Of a DNA stretch of 37,540 bases, positions 1 to 34,355 are shown one piece after another (positions within the stretch are counted from its first letter, which is position 1; each line of letters begins with the position of its first letter). This DNA comes from Anaerolineae bacterium (GTDB taxonomy: Bacteria; Chloroflexota; Anaerolineae; B4-G1; DUEL01). Both the position numbers and the translations under genes were made by a program. The DNA lies in assembly GCA_041082215.1 (NCBI GenBank), contig JBDOIF010000070.1:1-37540 (forward strand), given 5' to 3'. The notes beneath the pieces are model-generated. The model worked only from the letters and a program-made list of their open reading frames with translations, ran no database searches and had not been told where the DNA came from.

Positions 1-2007
1 GTCCTCTGCGGCCCCGGCTCCGCCAAACCCGGCGCTGATGTGGTCCGCTGGGTGGGGGATCAGGTGGCCCTGGTCGTCGCCGGGACGGCGGAGGCCGCCG
101 CCCGCGCGCGGGACCGGATCCGGGTGGAGTATGAGGACCTGCCGGTGATCGCCGACCCCTTCGAGGCCCTCAAGCCCGGCGCCCCGCCCATCCACGAGCA
201 CCGCCAGCCCAGCGAGATCCACCCCGAGATCCGCACCGAGGGCAACCTCATCTGCCACCACCAGATCCGCAAAGGGGATGTGGAGGCCGCCTGGGCCGCC
301 TGCGACGTCATCGTCGAGGCCGACTACCACACCCCACCCCAGGAGCACGCCTACCTCCAGCCGGAGGCCGGCGTGGGCTACATAGACGAACAGGGCCGGG
401 TGACGGTGGTCGTCGGCGGGCAGTGGACCTGGGAGGACCAGCAGCAGATCGCCCACGCCCTCGACCTGCCGCCGGAGCAGGTCCGGGTGATCTACCCGGC
501 GATCGGCGGGGCCTTCGGCGGGCGGGAGGACATGTCGGTTCAGATTGTCCTGGCCCTGGCCGCCTGGAAGCTCCGCCGACCGGTCAGGATCGTCTGGAGC
601 CGGGAGGAGTCGGTCATCGGCCACTGCAAGCGCCACCCGATGTGGGCCCACTGCAAATGGGGCGCCACCCGCGATGGGAAGCTGGTCGCCGCTGAGGTCC
701 GCATCGTCGCCGACGGCGGCGCTTACTGCTACACCACCAACAAGGTCCTGGGCAACACCACGGTCACCTGCACCGGCCCCTACGAGATCCCCAACGTGAA
801 AGTAGATGTGGATGGGGTGTACACCAACAACCCGCCCAGCGGGGCCTTCCGCGGCTTCGGCGCGCCGCAGGGGATCTTCTTCGCCGAGATGCAGATGAAC
901 AGGCTGGCCGAGGCGCTGGGGATGGACCCCGTGGAGCTGCGGATGCGGAACCTCCTGCGGGAAGGGAGCCTCACCGCGATGGGCACCCCGCTGCCGGGCG
1001 GCGTGGGCCTGGTGGAGGTCACCGAGAAATGCGCCCTGGCCGCCGGCTGGGAAAAAACCGAACAGGGATGGCAGAAACCAAAGACGCGCCACGCACCACG
1101 CAATACGCAATACGCAGGAGGAATCGGCATCGCCGTCGGCTTCAAGAACGTCGGCTTCTCCTTCGGCTACCAGGAGAACTGCTGGGCGAAGATCGAACTG
1201 CGGGGTGGGGCGAAGATCGAGGAGGCGGTGGTCTATATCGGCGCGGCGGATGTGGGGCAGGGGAGCCATACGGTGATCCGGCAGATGGCGGCGGAGGCGC
1301 TGGGGGTGGAGCTGGAGCGGGTGCGGCTGGAGGTGGCGGATACGGCCACCAGCCCCCCCAGTTCTGGCTCCGTCTCCGCCTCGCGGATGACCTTTATGGC
1401 CGGCAACGCCATCCGTGGCGCAGCAGAGCGGGCGCTGGAGCGCTGGAAGGCCGAGGACCGGCCGGCGGTGGGGGAGTACACCTACCTGGCCCCCAGGACC
1501 ACCCCCTTCGACCCCCAGACCGGCTACGGAACCCCCAACTTCGCCTACGGCTACGTGGCCGAGGCGGTGGAGGTGGAGGTGGATACGGAGACGGGCCAGT
1601 TGCACCTGCTGCGCGTCGTCTGCGCCGACGACGTGGGCAGGGCGGTCAACCCCCGGCTGGTGGAGGGCCAGATCGAAGGGGGCGTGGTGCAGGCGCTGGG
1701 CTGGGCGACGGTGGAGAACTTCATCGCAGAGAAGGGCCGCATCCTCACCGACCGCCTCAGCACCTACCTCATCCCCACCGCGCTGGACGTGCCGGAGCGG
1801 GTGGAGTCCATCATCATAGAGAACCCCGACCCGCGCGGGCCGTGGGGGGCCAGGGGCATGGGGGAGATGCCCTTCATCTGCCTGGCCCCAGCCCTGGTTG
1901 CCGCCGTCCACGACGCTACAGGGGTCTGGTTCAACGAACTGCCGCTGACGCCGGAGAGGGTGCTTGAAGGGGTGACTGGGGGATTGGGTGACTGGGTGAC
2001 TGGGTGA
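1..2007 (+). CDS. Xanthine dehydrogenase family molybdopterin-binding subunit (5'-truncated by window)
   Basis: Frame is open from base 1. Motifs IGGAFGGR, AFRGFG, VGQG, GQIEGG and GARGMGE are typical of XdhA/CoxL-family large subunits. Confidence 0.93.
   Translation, partial: VLCGPGSAKPGADVVRWVGDQVALVVAGTAEAAARARDRIRVEYEDLPVIADPFEALKPGAPPIHEHRQPSEIHPEIRTEGNLICHHQIRKGDVEAAWAACDVIVEADYHTPPQEHAYLQPEAGVGYIDEQGRVTVVVGGQWTWEDQQQIAHALDLPPEQVRVIYPAIGGAFGGREDMSVQIVLALAAWKLRRPVRIVWSREESVIGHCKRHPMWAHCKWGATRDGKLVAAEVRIVADGGAYCYTTNKVLGNTTVTCTGPYEIPNVKVDVDGVYTNNPPSGAFRGFGAPQGIFFAEMQMNRLAEALGMDPVELRMRNLLREGSLTAMGTPLPGGVGLVEVTEKCALAAGWEKTEQGWQKPKTRHAPRNTQYAGGIGIAVGFKNVGFSFGYQENCWAKIELRGGAKIEEAVVYIGAADVGQGSHTVIRQMAAEALGVELERVRLEVADTATSPPSSGSVSASRMTFMAGNAIRGAAERALERWKAEDRPAVGEYTYLAPRTTPFDPQTGYGTPNFAYGYVAEAVEVEVDTETGQLHLLRVVCADDVGRAVNPRLVEGQIEGGVVQALGWATVENFIAEKGRILTDRLSTYLIPTALDVPERVESIIIENPDPRGPWGARGMGEMPFICLAPALVAAVHDATGVWFNELPLTPERVLEGVTGGLGDWVTG
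1081..1115 (+). repeat. Five 7-nt units (NNNACGC) inside the XDH coding sequence
   Basis: aagacgc gccacgc accacgc aatacgc aatacgc, encoding KTRHAPRNTQYA. The unit is the same as in the intergenic array at 24821. Confidence 0.8.
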
Positions 2008-2018
2008 TTGGGGGACTG
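1971..2018 (+). repeat. Six tandem 8-nt units GG(T/G)GA(C/T)TG
   Basis: ggtgactg ggggattg ggtgactg ggtgactg ggtgattg ggggactg; contains the XDH stop codon. Confidence 0.92.
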
Positions 2019-2050
2019 AGAGACAACGCAGATGACATGGAGGCAGTCCG

Positions 2051-2431
2051 ATGAGAAAGTACGAGGAGTTGGAGGACCTGGAGGTTTACCAATTGGCAGT
2101 GCGGTTGGCGGATCAGGTGTGGGAACTTGTGTCGAAATGGTCGCCCTTTGCGCAGGATACGCTGGGAAAACAACTGGTGCGGGCGGCCGATTCGATAGCG
2201 GCCAATATCGCCGGGTCCTGCGGACGGTTCCACTACGGTGAGCGAATCCAGCACCTGTATTATGCCCGTGGTTCTCTTTATGAAACCCACCATTGGGTCC
2301 GCCGCAGCCACGCCCGTGGCCTGATCGGCCAACCCGACCATAACGACCTTTCCCGCCAACTGATTATCCTGACCCCTAAACTCAATGCCTACATCACCAG
2401 TAAAAAGCACCAGCGCCAAATAACCAAGTAA
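2051..2431 (+). CDS. Four-helix-bundle protein (23S rRNA IVP / bAvd-like family)
   Basis: 126 aa with LEVYQLA, QLVRAADSIAANIAG and YARGSLYET motifs; GGAGG RBS upstream. Confidence 0.92.
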   Translation: MRKYEELEDLEVYQLAVRLADQVWELVSKWSPFAQDTLGKQLVRAADSIAANIAGSCGRFHYGERIQHLYYARGSLYETHHWVRRSHARGLIGQPDHNDLSRQLIILTPKLNAYITSKKHQRQITK

Positions 2432-2459
2432 CCAGTTGACAATGACCAACCATACCAAT
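2417..2459 (+). repeat. Degenerate 8-nt array (CAANTAAC-like) over the four-helix-bundle stop
   Basis: caaataac caagtaac cagttgac aatgac caac catac caat; loosely complementary to the upstream 8-mer array. Confidence 0.65.
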
Positions 2460-2942
2460 AGAAGATCACATAGCCTGTTCCACCCCGACGACCGCGTCCT
2501 GGTCGCTGTGATGAACAACCCCCGCGATTTCGAGATCGCCCGGGAAGAGGGCTGGTATCGCATCCCGTTGAAGCACGCCCCGCCCGCCACGACCGAGGCG
2601 ACGGTGCTGGCCTTTTACTTCACAAAGGCGTTTGGCGAAGAGAGCTGGGCTATCCACTGGTACGCACCGGTGCGGGGGCATGAGCTGGTGCGGCGGCGGG
2701 ACCTGCTGCCTGAAGAGCCGGACCACCCGCGGGCCGATGAGCTGTACTACAAGGTGCAGTTGGGGCCGCTGGAGCGGCTGGAGCCGCCCATCCCCAGCTT
2801 CCGCTGGCGCCGGATCGCCTTCATTGAAACCTCGTGGGACCGGTTCGTCACGGCGCGGGAGGTACATGAACTGCTCGGCCCCGACGCCGAAGGCCGGTTC
2901 GTGACGCTGATGGACGCCGCATGGGAGGAAGACGCTTACTGA
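2442..2942 (+). CDS. Hypothetical protein, possible PUA/EVE-like nucleic-acid-binding domain
   Basis: ORF with VLVAVMNN..D..IAREEGWYRIP and FYFTKAFG motifs. ATG at 2442 preferred to TTG at 2436. The fold call is inference. Confidence 0.7.
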   Translation: MTNHTNRRSHSLFHPDDRVLVAVMNNPRDFEIAREEGWYRIPLKHAPPATTEATVLAFYFTKAFGEESWAIHWYAPVRGHELVRRRDLLPEEPDHPRADELYYKVQLGPLERLEPPIPSFRWRRIAFIETSWDRFVTAREVHELLGPDAEGRFVTLMDAAWEEDAY

Positions 2943-2958
2943 CCGATGAGGAACCGCT

Positions 2959-4002
2959 ATGAACGAGACCGTACAACAGGAGCTGAAAGAGCCGTCCCCT
3001 CTGCTGGACGCAGCGGGCAGGCTGACCAGGGTCGGCTGGTCGAGGCAGCCGCTGCTGGACTGTAACCTGGAGAACGTCCGCTTCTATGCTTTCCGTCCGC
3101 TCCAGCGCTTCCGCATCAAGCGCTGGGATTACTACGGGGTGACGACCCCTGATCACTTCTTCTCCTTCACCCTGGCCGATTTAGGTTATGCCGGCCAGGT
3201 CTTCGCCTATGTGGTTGACTTCGGGACCAGGGTGGTCTATGAGGACACACTGACCATCCCCTTCGCTTCGGGGATCGTCCTCCCCCGCAACAGCACCGAT
3301 GGGCGAAGTGCGTATGAGGGGAAGAACGCGCGCCTCGTCTTCGAAGCGGAAGCGGGGGGGCGGCGTGTTCTGGCCGACTGGCCCGGTTTTGCCGGACGAG
3401 GGCTTTCGGCAGAGATCGCCCTCGAGCTGCCGGCGGAACACGAGTCTATGACCATCGTCATCCCCATCGGCAGGAAACGGTTCTACTACAACCGCAAGGT
3501 CAACTGCATGCCTGCCAGGGGGTGGGTGACGTTTGACGGCGAACGGATGGAGATCACGCCAGACCGGTGTCTGGGGAACCTGGACTGGGGCCGGGGGGTG
3601 TGGGAGTACCGCTCCTTCTGGGTCTGGGCCAGCGCCTCAGGGTTCCTCGCCGATGGACGCCGCCTGGGCCTCAACCTGGGCTTCGGCTTCGGCGACACGT
3701 CGGCCGCGACGGAAAACGGTCTCATCCTCGACGGTCGCATCCACAAACTGGCCCGGGTTGATTTCGCCTACGACCCCACGGACTTTATGAAGCCGTGGCG
3801 GATGGCCTCTCTGGACGGTCGGTTGGACCTGGAGTTCGTGCCTTTCCTGGAGCGGGTGGCAGCGACCCATCTCCTGATCATTGACAGCGAGGTCCACCAG
3901 ATGTTCGGCCGCTACCACGGCACGGTGCGGACAGATCAGGGGGAGACGGTCCGGCTGGAGGGGCTGGTCGGCTTTGCCGAGGAGCACCACGCCCGCTGGT
4001 AG
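2959..4002 (+). CDS. DUF2804 family protein
   Basis: 347 aa with KRWDYY, LDWGRGVW..W.WAS, TEN and VHQMFGRY..EEHHARW motifs. Confidence 0.85.
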   Translation: MNETVQQELKEPSPLLDAAGRLTRVGWSRQPLLDCNLENVRFYAFRPLQRFRIKRWDYYGVTTPDHFFSFTLADLGYAGQVFAYVVDFGTRVVYEDTLTIPFASGIVLPRNSTDGRSAYEGKNARLVFEAEAGGRRVLADWPGFAGRGLSAEIALELPAEHESMTIVIPIGRKRFYYNRKVNCMPARGWVTFDGERMEITPDRCLGNLDWGRGVWEYRSFWVWASASGFLADGRRLGLNLGFGFGDTSAATENGLILDGRIHKLARVDFAYDPTDFMKPWRMASLDGRLDLEFVPFLERVAATHLLIIDSEVHQMFGRYHGTVRTDQGETVRLEGLVGFAEEHHARW

Positions 4003-13904: not shown

Positions 13905-13997
13905 GAGTGTATTTCAGTTTGGGGGCGAGATGTCCCTGGCCCGGGCCGGACCTGGGGAAACACGAATGGCGCGAATGGAAACGAATACTGCGAATGG
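13905..13997 (+). mobile_element. Partial copy (one arm) of the MITE-like element at 20804-20995
   Basis: 13907-13988 matches the reverse complement of 20911-20992 at 79/82 nt and includes the 9-nt CGAAT units. Confidence 0.8.
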
Positions 13998-14078
13998 AGC
14001 AGGTAGGTGTTCGGGCCATTCTGCACGCGCAGGCTCCGCCGGACTGGCGGGCGGTGGGGTTTTGGTACTTTCTAACTA

Positions 14079-14372: not shown

Positions 14373-17300
14373 ATGGGACTGATAAGATTCTCAAATAGAC
14401 AAATGTTCGTCCTGACAGCAGCGATTGGCGTACTCCTGACGGTCGGCGCCTGGCTCCTTCTCTCACCGTCCTGGGCAACTCAGCCAGCCCTCGCCGCACC
14501 CCTCAAGGAGGACCAGCCCGACGGCAGCATCCTCACCCCCACCCAGGCCATCAGCGGCACCTGGGGGCCGGGGACGGTCACCGCCACAGCCGATGTCACC
14601 ATCCTCCCCGGTGTGGTGATCACCGTGGCCCCCCACACCACAATCCTGGTAGCGGACGGGGTGGGGATCACCGTGCAGGGGGAGCTTCACACCGACGGCC
14701 CGGTCACCTTCACCACCGCCTCCTCCCCCGCCACACCCGGCGCCTGGAAGGGGCTTGCCTACGCCCCCGGAAGCAGCGGCTACCTCTATCAAACGACGGT
14801 TGAGTACGCCGAGCACGGCCTTGTGCTGAACACCGCTAACCCGATCACCATCTCCGGCTCCACCTTCCGCTATAACCGGCACGCGCCCCCCGCCGGGGAG
14901 GACGCCTTCGGAGCCGGGATCGCTATCTTCACCGGCTCCCACCTCATCACCGGTACCCATATCTACGGCAACCTCCTCCTCGCCACCGGCGACGGCGGCG
15001 ACGCCTTCGGCGGCGGCATCGCCATCCAGGGCGCAGGGTCGCAGGTGATCCGCTCCGCCGTCTACGCCAACGAGATCACCTCCACCCTCGGCTTCGCCGT
15101 CGGCGGCGGCATCGCCATCCTCGGCGATGGCAACGCCTCCCTCATCGAGGACAGCCAGGTGACCACCAACTCCCTCTACGCCCTGGGTGTGGACAGCGTG
15201 ACCCGGTACGGCGCTGGGGCCGGCATCGGCTTCCCGGAAGGCAGCCATACCCGTGCCGTGATCCGGGGGAACCTCATTGCCAATAACCAGAACCGTTCTG
15301 TCGTTGCGGCCGGCGGCGGGATCGGGATGGCCAGTGGGGCAGAGGCCGCCTCCATCGAGGGCAACGTGATTGTCAACAACCTCTGCGAAAGCCCCGGAGG
15401 GGACGTCTCCACGATGGACAACTACTGGGCCGAAGGGGGCGGGATTGACACCTGGGATCAGAACGTCGTCACAGTGACCAATAACCTGATCCTCAGCAAC
15501 ACGGTCCGGTGCGTGGGCCGCTGTTATCAGAACACCGGTCCGGTGGGTGGCGGGATGCTGGTGAACGGCCGCTCCGTCATCTCTCCCACCCGGGTGATCA
15601 ACAACACGGTCGTGGGGAACCGCGCCGAAGGGCAGACAAGCGGAGGATATGGCGGGGCCTTCGGCGCCCAGCGTTACGGGGTCTTTGCCAATAACGTCAT
15701 CGCAGACAACAGCAGCACCGGCTCCGGCGGCGCCTTCTACTGGTGGAGCGGAGTCTCGACGGGGTACAACGACCTCTGGAACAACACGCCGAACGATTAC
15801 GGCGGCGCTCCCCCCGCCTCCCGTCCGGGCGAGATCGCCCTCTCCCCCCAGTTCGCCGACACTGGCTTCTGGAAATACCACCTGAGCCTGGGCTCACCCG
15901 CGCGGGATGCAGGCACCTGCACCGGCGCGCCCGCCAGCGACTTCGAGGGGGATGCCCGCCCCCTGGGCTGGGGGTGCGATATGGGATGGGACGAAACCGG
16001 CTATCTGATGTTCTCCAAGTCCGTTGATCGGACCATCGCCAGCCCCGACCTTCCCATCCAGTACACCATCCGCGTCACCAACACCGACCTCCACATCGAG
16101 GCCCCCATCCTCATCACAGACCCCCTCGACATCAGCCTGCACTGGATTTCGGGCGGCGCTGAGATCGGCGGCGAGGTCATCCTGAGCGGAACGGTTCCCC
16201 CCGGCAGCGCGCTCGACTTCTCCTTCATCGCTGCCGCCAATCGGGGCGTGCCCGACGGCACGGTGGTGACCAACACCGCCTACATCTCCGACGGCCGTTA
16301 CATCTCCCCCACCAACTCGGTCACCACCACCATCTACAGCCCCGCCCTCACCGTCACCAAAGAGGCGGCTGACGGGGTCATCGGCGCCCCGCTCACCTAC
16401 ACCCTCCACGTCCACAACACCGGCGCCGGACTGGCGACGGACGTAGTGGTGACCGACGCCGTGCCGGCAGGGGCGACCTACCTCTCCGGCGGCGTGGAGA
16501 GCGACGGCGTGGTCTCGTGGACCATCCCGACCATCGGGCCCGGCGGCGAGGAGACGGTCACCTTCACCGTCCGTACCTGCCAGGAGAACCTGACCAATGA
16601 CGACTATCGGGTCGTCACCAGCACTCAGGGCATCGCCAGCCCGCCCGGTCCCGCTCTGGTTACGTTGCTGACACCGCCGGCCGTCGTCGCCGACTTCGCC
16701 TACGGCCCTGCGACACCGGTGGCAGGGGAGACGGTCTACTTCACCAGCACCAGCACCACCGATGGCAGTCCCCTCGTCGCCTGGACCTGGGATTTCGATG
16801 GCGGGGCCGGCTCCGGTGAGACGACTGCCCACACCTACAGTGCGCCGGGCACTTATACCGTCACCCTGGTCGTCACCGACGGCTGCGGCTATGCGGCCAC
16901 GATGGCAAAGCCAGTGGAGGTCTACGCCCTGCTCACCGTCCACACTATCGGCGGCGGCTCGGTGAGCGTCACGCCGGAGAAGCCCCTCTACCGATACGGG
17001 GACGTGGTCACTCTCACCGCCATACCCGACCCCGGCTGGCGTTTTGTCGGCTGGAGCGGCGACCTTTCCGGAAGCGACAACCCCATCACTCTTACCATTA
17101 CCGACAACACCACCGTCAACGCCACCTTCACGCAGGAAACGTATCGGCTCACCATCCACGTGGTCGGGAACGGCTCAGTGGGGGTGCGGCCGGACCGGGT
17201 GACGTTCTATTACGGCGAAGTGATTACGCTCACCGCCATACCCGGCCCCGGCTGGCGCTTTGCTGGCTGGAGTGGGGACCTGGGGGGCGCTGAGAACCCC

Positions 17301-17603
17301 ATCTCCTTCAATATCACCCACAATACGGTCGTCACCGCCACCTTCGAGCAGGAGGAGTACACCCTCACGATCAACGTGGTGGGGAATGGCACGGTGATCG
17401 TCGAGCCGGACCAGCCCACCTACCATTACGGCGACATAGTCACAATCACCGCCATCGCCGATCCCAACTGGAGCTTTGTTGGGTGGGGCGGCGACATCTC
17501 CGGCTCCAGTAATCCCAACACCATTGTCATCACCAGAGATACCGTCGTTACTGTCATCTTCAGCCAGCACGTCATCTACCTGCCGATAGTGATGAAAGGG
17601 TAG
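14373..17603 (+). CDS. Large secreted/surface protein: beta-helix region, two DUF11-like domains, PKD domain, three B-repeat-like domains
   Basis: Signal-like N-terminus, GGGI repeats, YTI.V.N motifs, WTWDFDG..HTYSAPGTYTVTLVV, three Y.YG.V.TLTA..P.W.F.GW.GD repeats, C-terminal VIYLPIVMKG. Confidence 0.88.
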   Translation: MGLIRFSNRQMFVLTAAIGVLLTVGAWLLLSPSWATQPALAAPLKEDQPDGSILTPTQAISGTWGPGTVTATADVTILPGVVITVAPHTTILVADGVGITVQGELHTDGPVTFTTASSPATPGAWKGLAYAPGSSGYLYQTTVEYAEHGLVLNTANPITISGSTFRYNRHAPPAGEDAFGAGIAIFTGSHLITGTHIYGNLLLATGDGGDAFGGGIAIQGAGSQVIRSAVYANEITSTLGFAVGGGIAILGDGNASLIEDSQVTTNSLYALGVDSVTRYGAGAGIGFPEGSHTRAVIRGNLIANNQNRSVVAAGGGIGMASGAEAASIEGNVIVNNLCESPGGDVSTMDNYWAEGGGIDTWDQNVVTVTNNLILSNTVRCVGRCYQNTGPVGGGMLVNGRSVISPTRVINNTVVGNRAEGQTSGGYGGAFGAQRYGVFANNVIADNSSTGSGGAFYWWSGVSTGYNDLWNNTPNDYGGAPPASRPGEIALSPQFADTGFWKYHLSLGSPARDAGTCTGAPASDFEGDARPLGWGCDMGWDETGYLMFSKSVDRTIASPDLPIQYTIRVTNTDLHIEAPILITDPLDISLHWISGGAEIGGEVILSGTVPPGSALDFSFIAAANRGVPDGTVVTNTAYISDGRYISPTNSVTTTIYSPALTVTKEAADGVIGAPLTYTLHVHNTGAGLATDVVVTDAVPAGATYLSGGVESDGVVSWTIPTIGPGGEETVTFTVRTCQENLTNDDYRVVTSTQGIASPPGPALVTLLTPPAVVADFAYGPATPVAGETVYFTSTSTTDGSPLVAWTWDFDGGAGSGETTAHTYSAPGTYTVTLVVTDGCGYAATMAKPVEVYALLTVHTIGGGSVSVTPEKPLYRYGDVVTLTAIPDPGWRFVGWSGDLSGSDNPITLTITDNTTVNATFTQETYRLTIHVVGNGSVGVRPDRVTFYYGEVITLTAIPGPGWRFAGWSGDLGGAENPISFNITHNTVVTATFEQEEYTLTINVVGNGTVIVEPDQPTYHYGDIVTITAIADPNWSFVGWGGDISGSSNPNTIVITRDTVVTVIFSQHVIYLPIVMKG

Positions 17604-20803: not shown

Positions 20804-20995
20804 GGCGTATTTCAATTTCGGGGCGGGTGGCCCTCCCGCTCGCCGGTGGATCGCGAATCCCACGAATGGCCCGAATACCGCGAATAGGAAGTATCCCTGC
20901 CCCATCCGCGGTATTCGTTTCCATTCGCGCCATTCGTGTTTCCCCAGGTCTGGCCCGGGTCACGGACATCTCGCCCCCAAACTGAAATACACCTG
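20804..20995. mobile_element. MITE-like non-autonomous element with terminal inverted repeats and inverted 9-mer arrays
   Basis: Left end GGCGTATTTCAATTTCGGGGCG; right end reverse complement GGTGTATTTCAGTTTGGGGGCG. Flanked by direct repeat GCCGGTTTG (20795-20803 and 20996-21004). Internal CGAAT and ATTCG 9-mers. Confidence 0.78.
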
Positions 20996-32576: not shown

Positions 32577-34315
32577 AAGAGAGCCTCACCATTTGCATCG
32601 GCGGCGAAGCAGGGATGGGGCTGGAGTCGAGCGGGGCGGGGTTCGCCAAAGCGCTGACGCGGGGTGGTCTCTACGTCTTCGGTCTCCCCGACTACCACTC
32701 CCGCATCCGGGGCGGCCACAACTTCTTCTCCGTGCGCATCGCCCACCACCCCCTCTATTCCCACGCCGAGCCGGTCCACATCCTCCTGGCGCTGGATGTG
32801 GAGACAGTGCGGCGGCACATAGGAAGCGTGGTCCCTGGCGGAGCCGTGGTCTACGATGCGAAAGACGAACTGCCCGAAGAACTCCACCGGCCGGGCGTCA
32901 ACTTCTGCCCGATCCCCCTCTCCGCCCTGGCCGAGGAGAGGGGGGGACGGGCGGTGATGCGCAACACGCTCGCCTTCGCCCTCGCCGCCGGACTCATCGG
33001 CTTCGACCCCGCCTATATCGAGAGCGTGGTCCGGGACAACTTCGCCCGCAAGGGAGAGGCGGTGGTGGACGCCAATCTGCGGGTGGTGGAGGCGGGGGTT
33101 CAGGCTGGCTGCGCGTTCCAGACCGATTTCCCCTTCCGTATGGAGGCGGTACCGGAGGCTCCCCGCCGCCTCCTCCTCAACGGCAACGACGCATTCGCCA
33201 TGGGGGCGCTGGCGGGGGGTTGCCGGTTCGTCGCAGCCTATCCTATGACCCCTGGCTCGCCCGTCCTCCAGTGGTTCGCTGCCCGCGCCGGAGAATACGG
33301 TGCGGTGACCAAGCACGCCGAGGATGAGATCGCCGCCGTCAATATGGCGATCGGCGCGGCCTACGTGGGCGCCCGCGCGCTGGTCCCCACCTCCGGCGGC
33401 GGATTCTCCCTGATGGTCGAGGCGCTGGGGCTGGCCGGCATGACGGAGGTCCCTGTGGTCATCTACGAAGCCCAGCGGCCTGGCCCCTCCACCGGCCTGC
33501 CCACCCGCACCGAGCAGGGCGACCTCCTGTTCGTCACTTATGCCTCTCAGGGGGAATTCCCCCGCTTCGTCCTCGCCCCCGGCACGGTGGAGGAGTCCTT
33601 CCGCATCGGCTGGCAGGCCTTCAACCTGGCGGAGCGGTACCAGACCCCGGCCATCGTCCTCAGCGACCACTACCTGGCCGTGGCCTATCGGACAATCGAG
33701 GCGGACGCCCTGAACTTCGACGAAGTGACCATTGACCGGGGGAGCCTGATGGGCCGGGAGGAGCTGGACGCCCTCCAGGAACCCTACCGCCGCTTCCGCG
33801 TCACCGAGACGGGCGTCTCCCCCCGCGCTGTGCCCGGTCACCCCAACGCCGTCTGGAGCACCACCTCCGACGAGCACGACGAGTATGGCGCCATCAACGA
33901 GGAGGCGGACAACCGCAACGCCCAGGTGGAAAAGCGACTGCGAAAACTGGAGGGGATGGCGCGGGAGGTCCCCGGGCCATCCTGGTACGGCCCCGAAGAG
34001 GCGGAGGTGACCCTTCTCTGCTGGGGCTCCAGCTACGGCCCGGTGCGGGAGGCGGTGGACCGGCTGAACGGAGAGCGGACCGGCCGGGCCAACATGCTCC
34101 ACTTCAGCGCCCTCTACCCCCTCCCCCTGGAGGCGACGAAAGCGGCCCTGGGACGGACAAAGCGCACGGTCGTGGTGGAGGGAAACGCCACCGGTCAGTT
34201 CGAGACCCTTCTACGGGCCTACACCGGCTGGTCGCCCGACGGTGCGGTCCACCGCTACGACGGTCGGGCCTTCACCCCCGAATACATCCTCCGCCGCCTG
34301 CCGTTTGCCGTTTGA
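32573..34315 (+). CDS. korA: 2-oxoacid:acceptor oxidoreductase alpha subunit (gamma-alpha fusion)
   Basis: GGEAGMG, YHSRIRGG, YPMTP, EDE and QRPGPSTGLPT motifs. Confidence 0.92.
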   Translation: MKESLTICIGGEAGMGLESSGAGFAKALTRGGLYVFGLPDYHSRIRGGHNFFSVRIAHHPLYSHAEPVHILLALDVETVRRHIGSVVPGGAVVYDAKDELPEELHRPGVNFCPIPLSALAEERGGRAVMRNTLAFALAAGLIGFDPAYIESVVRDNFARKGEAVVDANLRVVEAGVQAGCAFQTDFPFRMEAVPEAPRRLLLNGNDAFAMGALAGGCRFVAAYPMTPGSPVLQWFAARAGEYGAVTKHAEDEIAAVNMAIGAAYVGARALVPTSGGGFSLMVEALGLAGMTEVPVVIYEAQRPGPSTGLPTRTEQGDLLFVTYASQGEFPRFVLAPGTVEESFRIGWQAFNLAERYQTPAIVLSDHYLAVAYRTIEADALNFDEVTIDRGSLMGREELDALQEPYRRFRVTETGVSPRAVPGHPNAVWSTTSDEHDEYGAINEEADNRNAQVEKRLRKLEGMAREVPGPSWYGPEEAEVTLLCWGSSYGPVREAVDRLNGERTGRANMLHFSALYPLPLEATKAALGRTKRTVVVEGNATGQFETLLRAYTGWSPDGAVHRYDGRAFTPEYILRRLPFAV

Positions 34316-34333
34316 CGCCCGACGTTTGACGTT
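34299..34333 (+). repeat. Five 7-nt units (TGMCGTT) spanning the korA stop
   Basis: tgccgtt tgccgtt tgacgcc cgacgtt tgacgtt. Confidence 0.8.
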
Positions 34334-34355
34334 TCGGATCAAAGGAGCGAAGCCT

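Follow-up and report, generated by a model that had tools for sequence, protein, structure and literature searches.

A four-helix-bundle gene cassette framed by 8-nucleotide repeat arrays appears to be an old, eroding resident of an operon junction in Anaerolineae

Between a gene for a xanthine-dehydrogenase-family molybdopterin subunit (xdh) and a conserved open reading frame (P0002), the window (the whole 37,540-nt stretch of DNA analysed here, contig C26 of the 3.53 Mb, 65% GC genome G000) carries a gene for a four-helix-bundle protein (P0001) that is framed by arrays of short tandem repeats. Our preferred reading, to which we assign a probability of about 0.55, is that the gene and its arrays form a cassette that has long resided at the xdh-P0002 junction and is eroding there lineage by lineage, likely as a selfish element that seldom moves and is related to the ORF-bearing intervening sequences (IVS) of rRNA, with arms predicted to pair in the operon transcript.

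The first genes of the window lie in the order xdh, P0001, P0002, DUF2804 (Table 1), and the cassette is thus situated between protein genes rather than inside an rRNA gene. The original prediction had taken DUF2804 for the next gene, wrongly, as P0002 intervenes, and DUF2804 was dropped as an informative neighbour because, of the 28 genomes with a match, G000 and G006 alone have it next to P0002. Nearly every genome of the order has P0002, in single copy, and a profile search against Pfam and NCBIfam gave no match for it. Its open frame here measures 172 aa, that of most relatives being longer (mostly 220–260 aa), and since the ancestral start codon (ATG or GTG in relatives) reads CTG in the window (2475–2477), translation likely begins at the ATG within the right arm. 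An Rfam scan of positions 1800–3100 gave no match near the gathering score, promoter and terminator scans of the locus yielded nothing above chance, and in RNA run X10, available as contigs, short stretches of xdh and P0002 are represented but not the cassette. Two further repeats in the window lie within reading frames: (i) an in-frame 7-mer array (ACGCAAT-like, 1084–1116) in a loop of xdh, with a related in-frame array in G085 and none in G002 and G026 (the loop was located in 4 of 21 loci); and (ii) a 216-nt tandem repeat (16995–17495) inside a 1076-aa PKD/InlB-B-repeat protein.

Table 1. Positions of the cassette, its host genes and two gene-less arrays in the window.
Feature	Position	Strand	Remarks
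Xanthine-dehydrogenase-family molybdopterin subunit gene (xdh), upstream host gene	40–2007	+	reading frame open at contig start
Left arm, six 8-nt units GG(T/G)GA(C/T)TG	1971–2018	+	G-rich on coding strand
Spacer with Shine-Dalgarno-like GGAGG (2039–2043)	2019–2050	+	homologous spacer in G013
Four-helix-bundle gene P0001, 126 aa	2051–2431	+	TIGR02436/PF05635
Right arm, decayed C/A-rich 8-nt units, CCAAGTAA-like	2416–2460	+	covers P0001 stop, contains ATG at 2442
P0002, downstream host gene, conserved ORF	2442–2942	+	present in 128 of 145 genomes of the order
DUF2804 gene, outside the cassette	2959–4002	+	
Gene-less 7-mer array, iscS-iscU	24821–24867		
Gene-less 7-mer array, korA-korB	34295–34334		

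The six units that had been predicted to overlap the xdh stop are present as consecutive, exact matches to GG(T/G)GA(C/T)TG; they encode the final 12 codons of xdh together with its stop, the TGA (2005–2007) falling in the fifth unit. The periodicity score of this left array (24.5) was reached by none of 5000 shuffles and places it in the top 1.6% of the upstream flanks of 2791 called genes. The gene does lie between two arrays, as foreseen, the right one being decayed and covering the gene's own stop: it comprises the units CAAATAAC, CAAGTAAC and CAGTTGAC plus another two or three that are decayed, and the second unit contains the P0001 stop TAA (2429–2431). Its periodicity is weak (score 8.5, attained by 19 of 5000 shuffles), and 10.7% of G000 genes equal it in their downstream flank. 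The further claim that the arrays are opposed holds for the same site in the relatives G013, G085 and G084, where 0, 1 and 0 of 100 shuffles, respectively, were as good as the observed complementarity, but is marginal in the window itself, where the arm-to-arm duplex is predicted at −31.3 kcal/mol, shuffling of the right arm giving −24.9 ± 4.1 and an equally good duplex in 18 of 300 cases, and the fold of the whole region is no better than that of shuffles (z −0.58). Because the right arm in family-f2 relatives is a near-exact reverse complement of the left arm, the window's right arm has, by this comparison of sequences, drifted, and the window copy looks like one at an early stage of decay. 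Copy number in the left arm also varies among strains (by −8, −16 and +24 nt).

A series of alleles was found at the same junction in relatives. Examination of 70 of the 130 P0002 matches (mostly from families f1 and f2) and of 14 metagenome loci, 84 in all, returned 25 with xdh upstream, and the addition of G013 across two overlapping contigs gave 26 syntenic loci. Three of them hold an intact cassette (G000, G013 with 78% identity and G085 with 66%), three a broken one, six the left array only, and 14 nothing, other repeats or other genes. The three breaks differ: in G084 26 codons are deleted in frame, in G083 the first three codons are fused to the same 3' breakpoint as in G084, and in L096 the four-helix-bundle gene is interrupted by a palindromic segment of ∼110 nt. 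(That segment, at 498–606 of the oriented locus, has inverted ends and is MITE-like.) Where only the left arm remains, it is fused to the ribosome-binding site of P0002 (G006, G011, G063, G074, L094 and, doubtfully, G073), while the remaining 14 loci comprise five that are empty, four with other repeat families and five with other genes. With the gene present in any form in only 6 of 26 syntenic loci, it is not syntenically fixed, and, as the original prediction had it, gene and arrays behave as one unit of which decayed and array-only forms exist at this site. Comparing filled with empty junctions by eye, we saw no target duplication, the insertion being too old to exclude one. Variation extends to strain level: in run X7, one contig (at depth 6.5) cleanly lacks 287 nt (2073–2359) and retains both arms, and in runs X9, X2 and X3 the ORF is covered with no indel listed and the arm lengths differ. 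At residues 55 and 57, where P0001 has G and C, one contig of run X9 (depth 4.2) encodes E and Y, like the closest relatives; a GS pair at this place was found in 1 of 106 family members. In G003 (locus L052), the xdh-P0002 junction holds a very long gene-less 7-mer array that faces an 8-mer array across 370 nt.

The association of gene and arrays recurs across the family. We assembled 105 family loci (the 30 best matches, 60 more picked mostly from f1 and f2, and 15 from order and phylum searches), of which 97 had a scorable gene. Arrays occurred at both ends in 75 of the 97, and the arms were mutually complementary in 76, versus 19% of mismatched pairs in an all-against-all arm comparison by a 6-mer coverage measure. 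Collapsed to sites, there are 48 (an upper bound, because short contigs can split one site), 39 with both-end arrays and 35 with inverted complementarity. Among ordinary genes, for which control rates were taken from G000 only, both-end arrays were seen in 76 of 2791 overall and in 46 of 1387 mid-operon genes (∼3%), and the arms were complementary in 10 of those 76. The expected enrichment of flanking arrays around paralogues was thus borne out, both by these relatives and by G000, where four of five PF05635 matches, all four non-DGR copies, are framed by arrays on either side. No array flanks the fifth, an Avd-like gene that on C154 (815–1914) lies between an apparent reverse-transcriptase tail and a template-repeat-like stretch and probably belongs to a diversity-generating retroelement (DGR). 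In another paralogous cassette of G000 (C135, 43390–43700) the family match is lost after residue 57 and both arrays are kept, its ORF probably being internally deleted. Of 24 protein clusters, 10 are found at more than one site, and a single junction harbours two clusters that are unrelated and have different units.

Short-period arrays are far more numerous in G000 than cassettes. Tandem Repeats Finder (TRF) gave 332 rows with a period of 7 or 8 and at least three copies (rows can overlap), and arrays lie at 200 of 2149 co-oriented junctions versus 0.35% of in-gene windows (with genes from our own caller); in the window itself, two weak degenerate arrays (13962–13998 and 20852–20886) lie in divergent intergenic regions. 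Three exact units of the window's repeat family are present in 16 of 145 genomes, and the five genomes with at least 10 matches (G013, G000, G065, G011 and G084) are all carriers or inferred recent losers. The unit occurs in 9 of 12 carrier-lineage genomes versus 7 of 133 others, a contrast that kinship inflates and in which the carrier-lineage group is partly defined by remnants of this very unit; for gene-bearing genomes alone the figures are 3 of 5 versus 12 of 140, and for a second unit family 5 of 8 carriers (own arms excluded) versus 7 of 53 others, both likewise inflated by kinship. G085 has an intact gene, yet no other array of the window's unit, and many arrays of the unit occur in G065, G011 and G054, where no matching gene was found. 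Cassettes might, in our proposal, seed gene-less arrays of their own unit elsewhere in the genome. More broadly, it is possible, and we suggest it only tentatively, that a family of elements without transposase has the four-helix-bundle cassettes as its autonomous members, and that in it each protein clade would recognise and propagate its own 7–8-nt unit and so seed operon junctions genome-wide.

Alternatively, the repeats could be an independent, genome-wide phenomenon (slippage, or another element that fills junctions) and the four-helix-bundle gene a passenger framed by chance. The sheer number of arrays speaks for this, at 9–12% of co-oriented junctions or ∼200 versus four cassettes, as do the four of 26 xdh-P0002 loci in which other repeat families have refilled the junction. 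So do the gene-less arrays at iscS-iscU and korA-korB, which the original prediction had regarded as empty or decayed relatives of the cassette. This part of the prediction found no support in the two arrays examined: they are 7-mers from repeat families other than that of the cassette's 8-mer, and among 29 syntenic loci each (window included), arrays occur in 15 at iscS-iscU and 16 at korA-korB, the unit turning over by lineage, and a four-helix-bundle gene in none. Junctions that are filled in relatives show no clear excess of matching scars in G000. Of 25 such junctions, 22 entered the array count and 18 the scar count (the gaps of the rest being too short or too long); G000 has a matching scar at 3 of 18 (each at p < 0.05; combined p 0.10) and an array at 5 of 22 versus a 12% background (p 0.12). 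Chance framing, however, sits poorly with arms that are complementary across the family gene in 76 of 97 cases versus 10 of 76 ordinary genes, with a repeat unit that tracks protein clade such that one genome has different units at different cassettes, and with the near confinement of the window's unit to carrier lineages. We therefore consider this explanation unlikely, and to judge from sequence, some gene-less arrays are cassette scars.

P0001 matches TIGR02436 (E 8.7e-24) and PF05635 (E 1e-24), both above cut-off, and is basic (pI 9.5). Its predicted structure comprises four helices (pLDDT 91) and matches 2GSC (TM 0.80) and 2RLD, with a weaker match to Avd (TM 0.71, E 0.03), to which it is 8–10% identical. 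The homology of Avd (PDB 4DWL, 8UB7), Xcc0516 (2GSC) and BT_0352 (2RLD) is noted in the available part of one source (PMC10053308), and P0001 shares with them its basic character and four-helix-bundle fold. Nothing other than the PF05635 protein is encoded between the arms: profile searches of the window revealed no transposase or reverse transcriptase linked to the cassette. The dN/dS of the cassette gene, 0.121 for G000-G013 and 0.07 for G085-G084, shows at the sequence level that the protein is under purifying selection.

Such long purifying selection in place would suit a protein that serves the host as an RNA-binding regulator, with the arrays as binding sites tuning translation or stability at junctions including its own. 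A basic protein with the fold of the five-chain 2GSC, 2RLD and Avd would be apt for this role, and 16 of 20 arrays of the window's unit lie at co-oriented junctions, near stops and starts. A regulator of this kind would nonetheless be a strange one, intact in only 3 of 26 loci and deleted repeatedly, with close relatives swapping units at the same junction and array-rich genomes lacking a matching gene, and we regard this role as rather improbable.

The history of the junction favours long residence. A tree of xdh and P0002 recovers families f1 and f2 (98/99) with carriers on both sides of the split, so placed that five state changes are needed, and monophyly of the carriers is rejected (p-AU 6e-6, two gappy rows left out). 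G065, which has no trace of the cassette, is sister (100/95) to the filled L096, and G011 and G001 are congeners of the filled G013. Synonymous divergence of the cassette gene is at least that of its neighbours (dS 1.02 versus 1.00 for P0002 and 0.51 for xdh) and is saturated between the families. Given that the carriers do not form one clade, that the gene is at least as diverged at synonymous sites as its neighbours and that dN/dS, where computable, is 0.07–0.12, the insert is, on sequence grounds, old, inherited and repeatedly eroded, and not the product of a recent jump. An early gain followed by many losses fits the sequences best, an old transfer between families being a less favoured possibility. 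Searches of 145 genomes of the order and 401 of the phylum revealed no close copy at a different site; the nearest relatives elsewhere (one aligned, 47% identical) sit at other operon junctions with other units, and the paralogues in G000 are 32–43% identical, with no near-identical copies. A pattern-based scan of 185,579 genomes for P0001 recovered one true relative (L090, Chloroflexi bacterium) and one spurious 11-residue match. With no near-identical copy at a second site, movement is inferred only from deep divergence.

The original prediction's mobile cassette might also have been taken in a stricter sense, as an insertion into an empty xdh junction that is recent and still actively mobile. 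This would account for the patchy presence, for the lower GC of the cassette gene (0.56 versus 0.65–0.69) and for its absence from the close relatives G006, G011 and G001, but we hold it to be very improbable: it is already largely refuted by the orthologues at the same site in two families with saturated synonymous sites, by the left-arm remnants in G011 and G006, and by the want of a close copy elsewhere. Least credible of all is that P0001 is an orphan accessory (Avd) gene of a DGR, a role that its structural likeness to Avd and the separate Avd-like gene on C154 might suggest but that was rejected, as no reverse transcriptase is found among its neighbours (xdh, P0002 and DUF2804) and the C154 gene has no arrays.

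How the long-resident cassette might operate can be pictured as follows. The predicted stem of the two arms in the operon transcript would loop the gene out, and RNase III, a gene for which is present in G000, could cut this stem, with cleavage expected between cistrons and hence at little cost, although cleavage in the left arm might do harm, since that arm overlaps the xdh stop. The protein, basic and probably a pentamer, would bind nucleic acid and be required for rare moves. Slippage would alter arm length, and deletions would fuse the left arm to the ribosome-binding site of the next gene, leaving array scars whose persistence would be due to the xdh stop within them.

RNase III removes ORF-bearing 23S rRNA IVS from the transcript, and the ends are not religated. 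The cassette shares with them its protein family (S23p/PF05635) and sporadic presence at a conserved site (6 of 26 loci), and differs in that its host site is a protein-coding operon junction rather than rRNA, that both arms are built of 8-nt tandem units, that a stop codon and probably a start codon of the neighbouring genes lie in the arms, and that its ORF has a Shine-Dalgarno-like sequence and is under purifying selection. The closest parallel is the Coxiella burnetii IVS in helix 45 of 23S rRNA, which, in the available part of the source (PMC4990558), is described as an S23p ORF within a 28-bp terminal stem, with two or three heptamer repeats (depending on the strain) upstream of the ORF, one strain with a 176-bp ORF deletion, and removal by RNase III; ORF-bearing IVS are there considered sporadic, acquired long ago and then vertically inherited. 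Akin to this IVS, as far as that text goes, the cassette has short tandem repeats of variable copy number and internal ORF deletions, and its terminal arms are clearly complementary at this site in relatives but marginally so in the window; by analogy it likely works in the same way. Not being located in rRNA, the cassette is no member of the 23S IVS; the best reading, again by analogy, would make it an operon-junction variant of the ORF-bearing ones.

Two other kinds of element invite comparison. Insertion sequences and MITEs exist in filled and gene-less forms bounded by inverted sequence. The cassette does so too, but lacks a transposase, a fixed terminal repeat and near-identical copies, and no target duplication is seen by eye. 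The available parts of two further sources describe intergenic heptamer families (GGGAATC in Xanthomonas and GGGGAYT in Nostoc, PMC4692102; TAACTGA in Beggiatoaceae, PMC4679880) whose arrays lie near or over stop and start codons, often as convergent pairs, and whose origin is left unexplained. To the extent of those texts, the cassette arrays resemble them in their short period and in lying close to or over stop and start codons, and differ in that the unit is 8 nt long and frames a gene; the main texts, as available, contain no mention of a helix-bundle gene. A literature search (few subscription journals, no supplements) found no description of four-helix-bundle genes framed by inverted 7–8-nt arrays at operon junctions.

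Distinctive of the present case are the history followed at a single site and the connection of the cassette with the spread of its unit. To our knowledge, the large PF05635/TIGR02436 family has no known function outside DGRs, and the locus links it to the 7–8-nt intergenic repeats. The junction also supplies matched natural alleles for assay side by side (intact and well paired, drifted, internally deleted, arm only, and clean). Most gene-less arrays cannot be taken simply for old cassette sites, and models must therefore allow arrays to arise without a gene at that spot. Clade-specific seeding, if true, would explain the bacterial excess of heptamer and octamer repeats and would give PF05635 a function.
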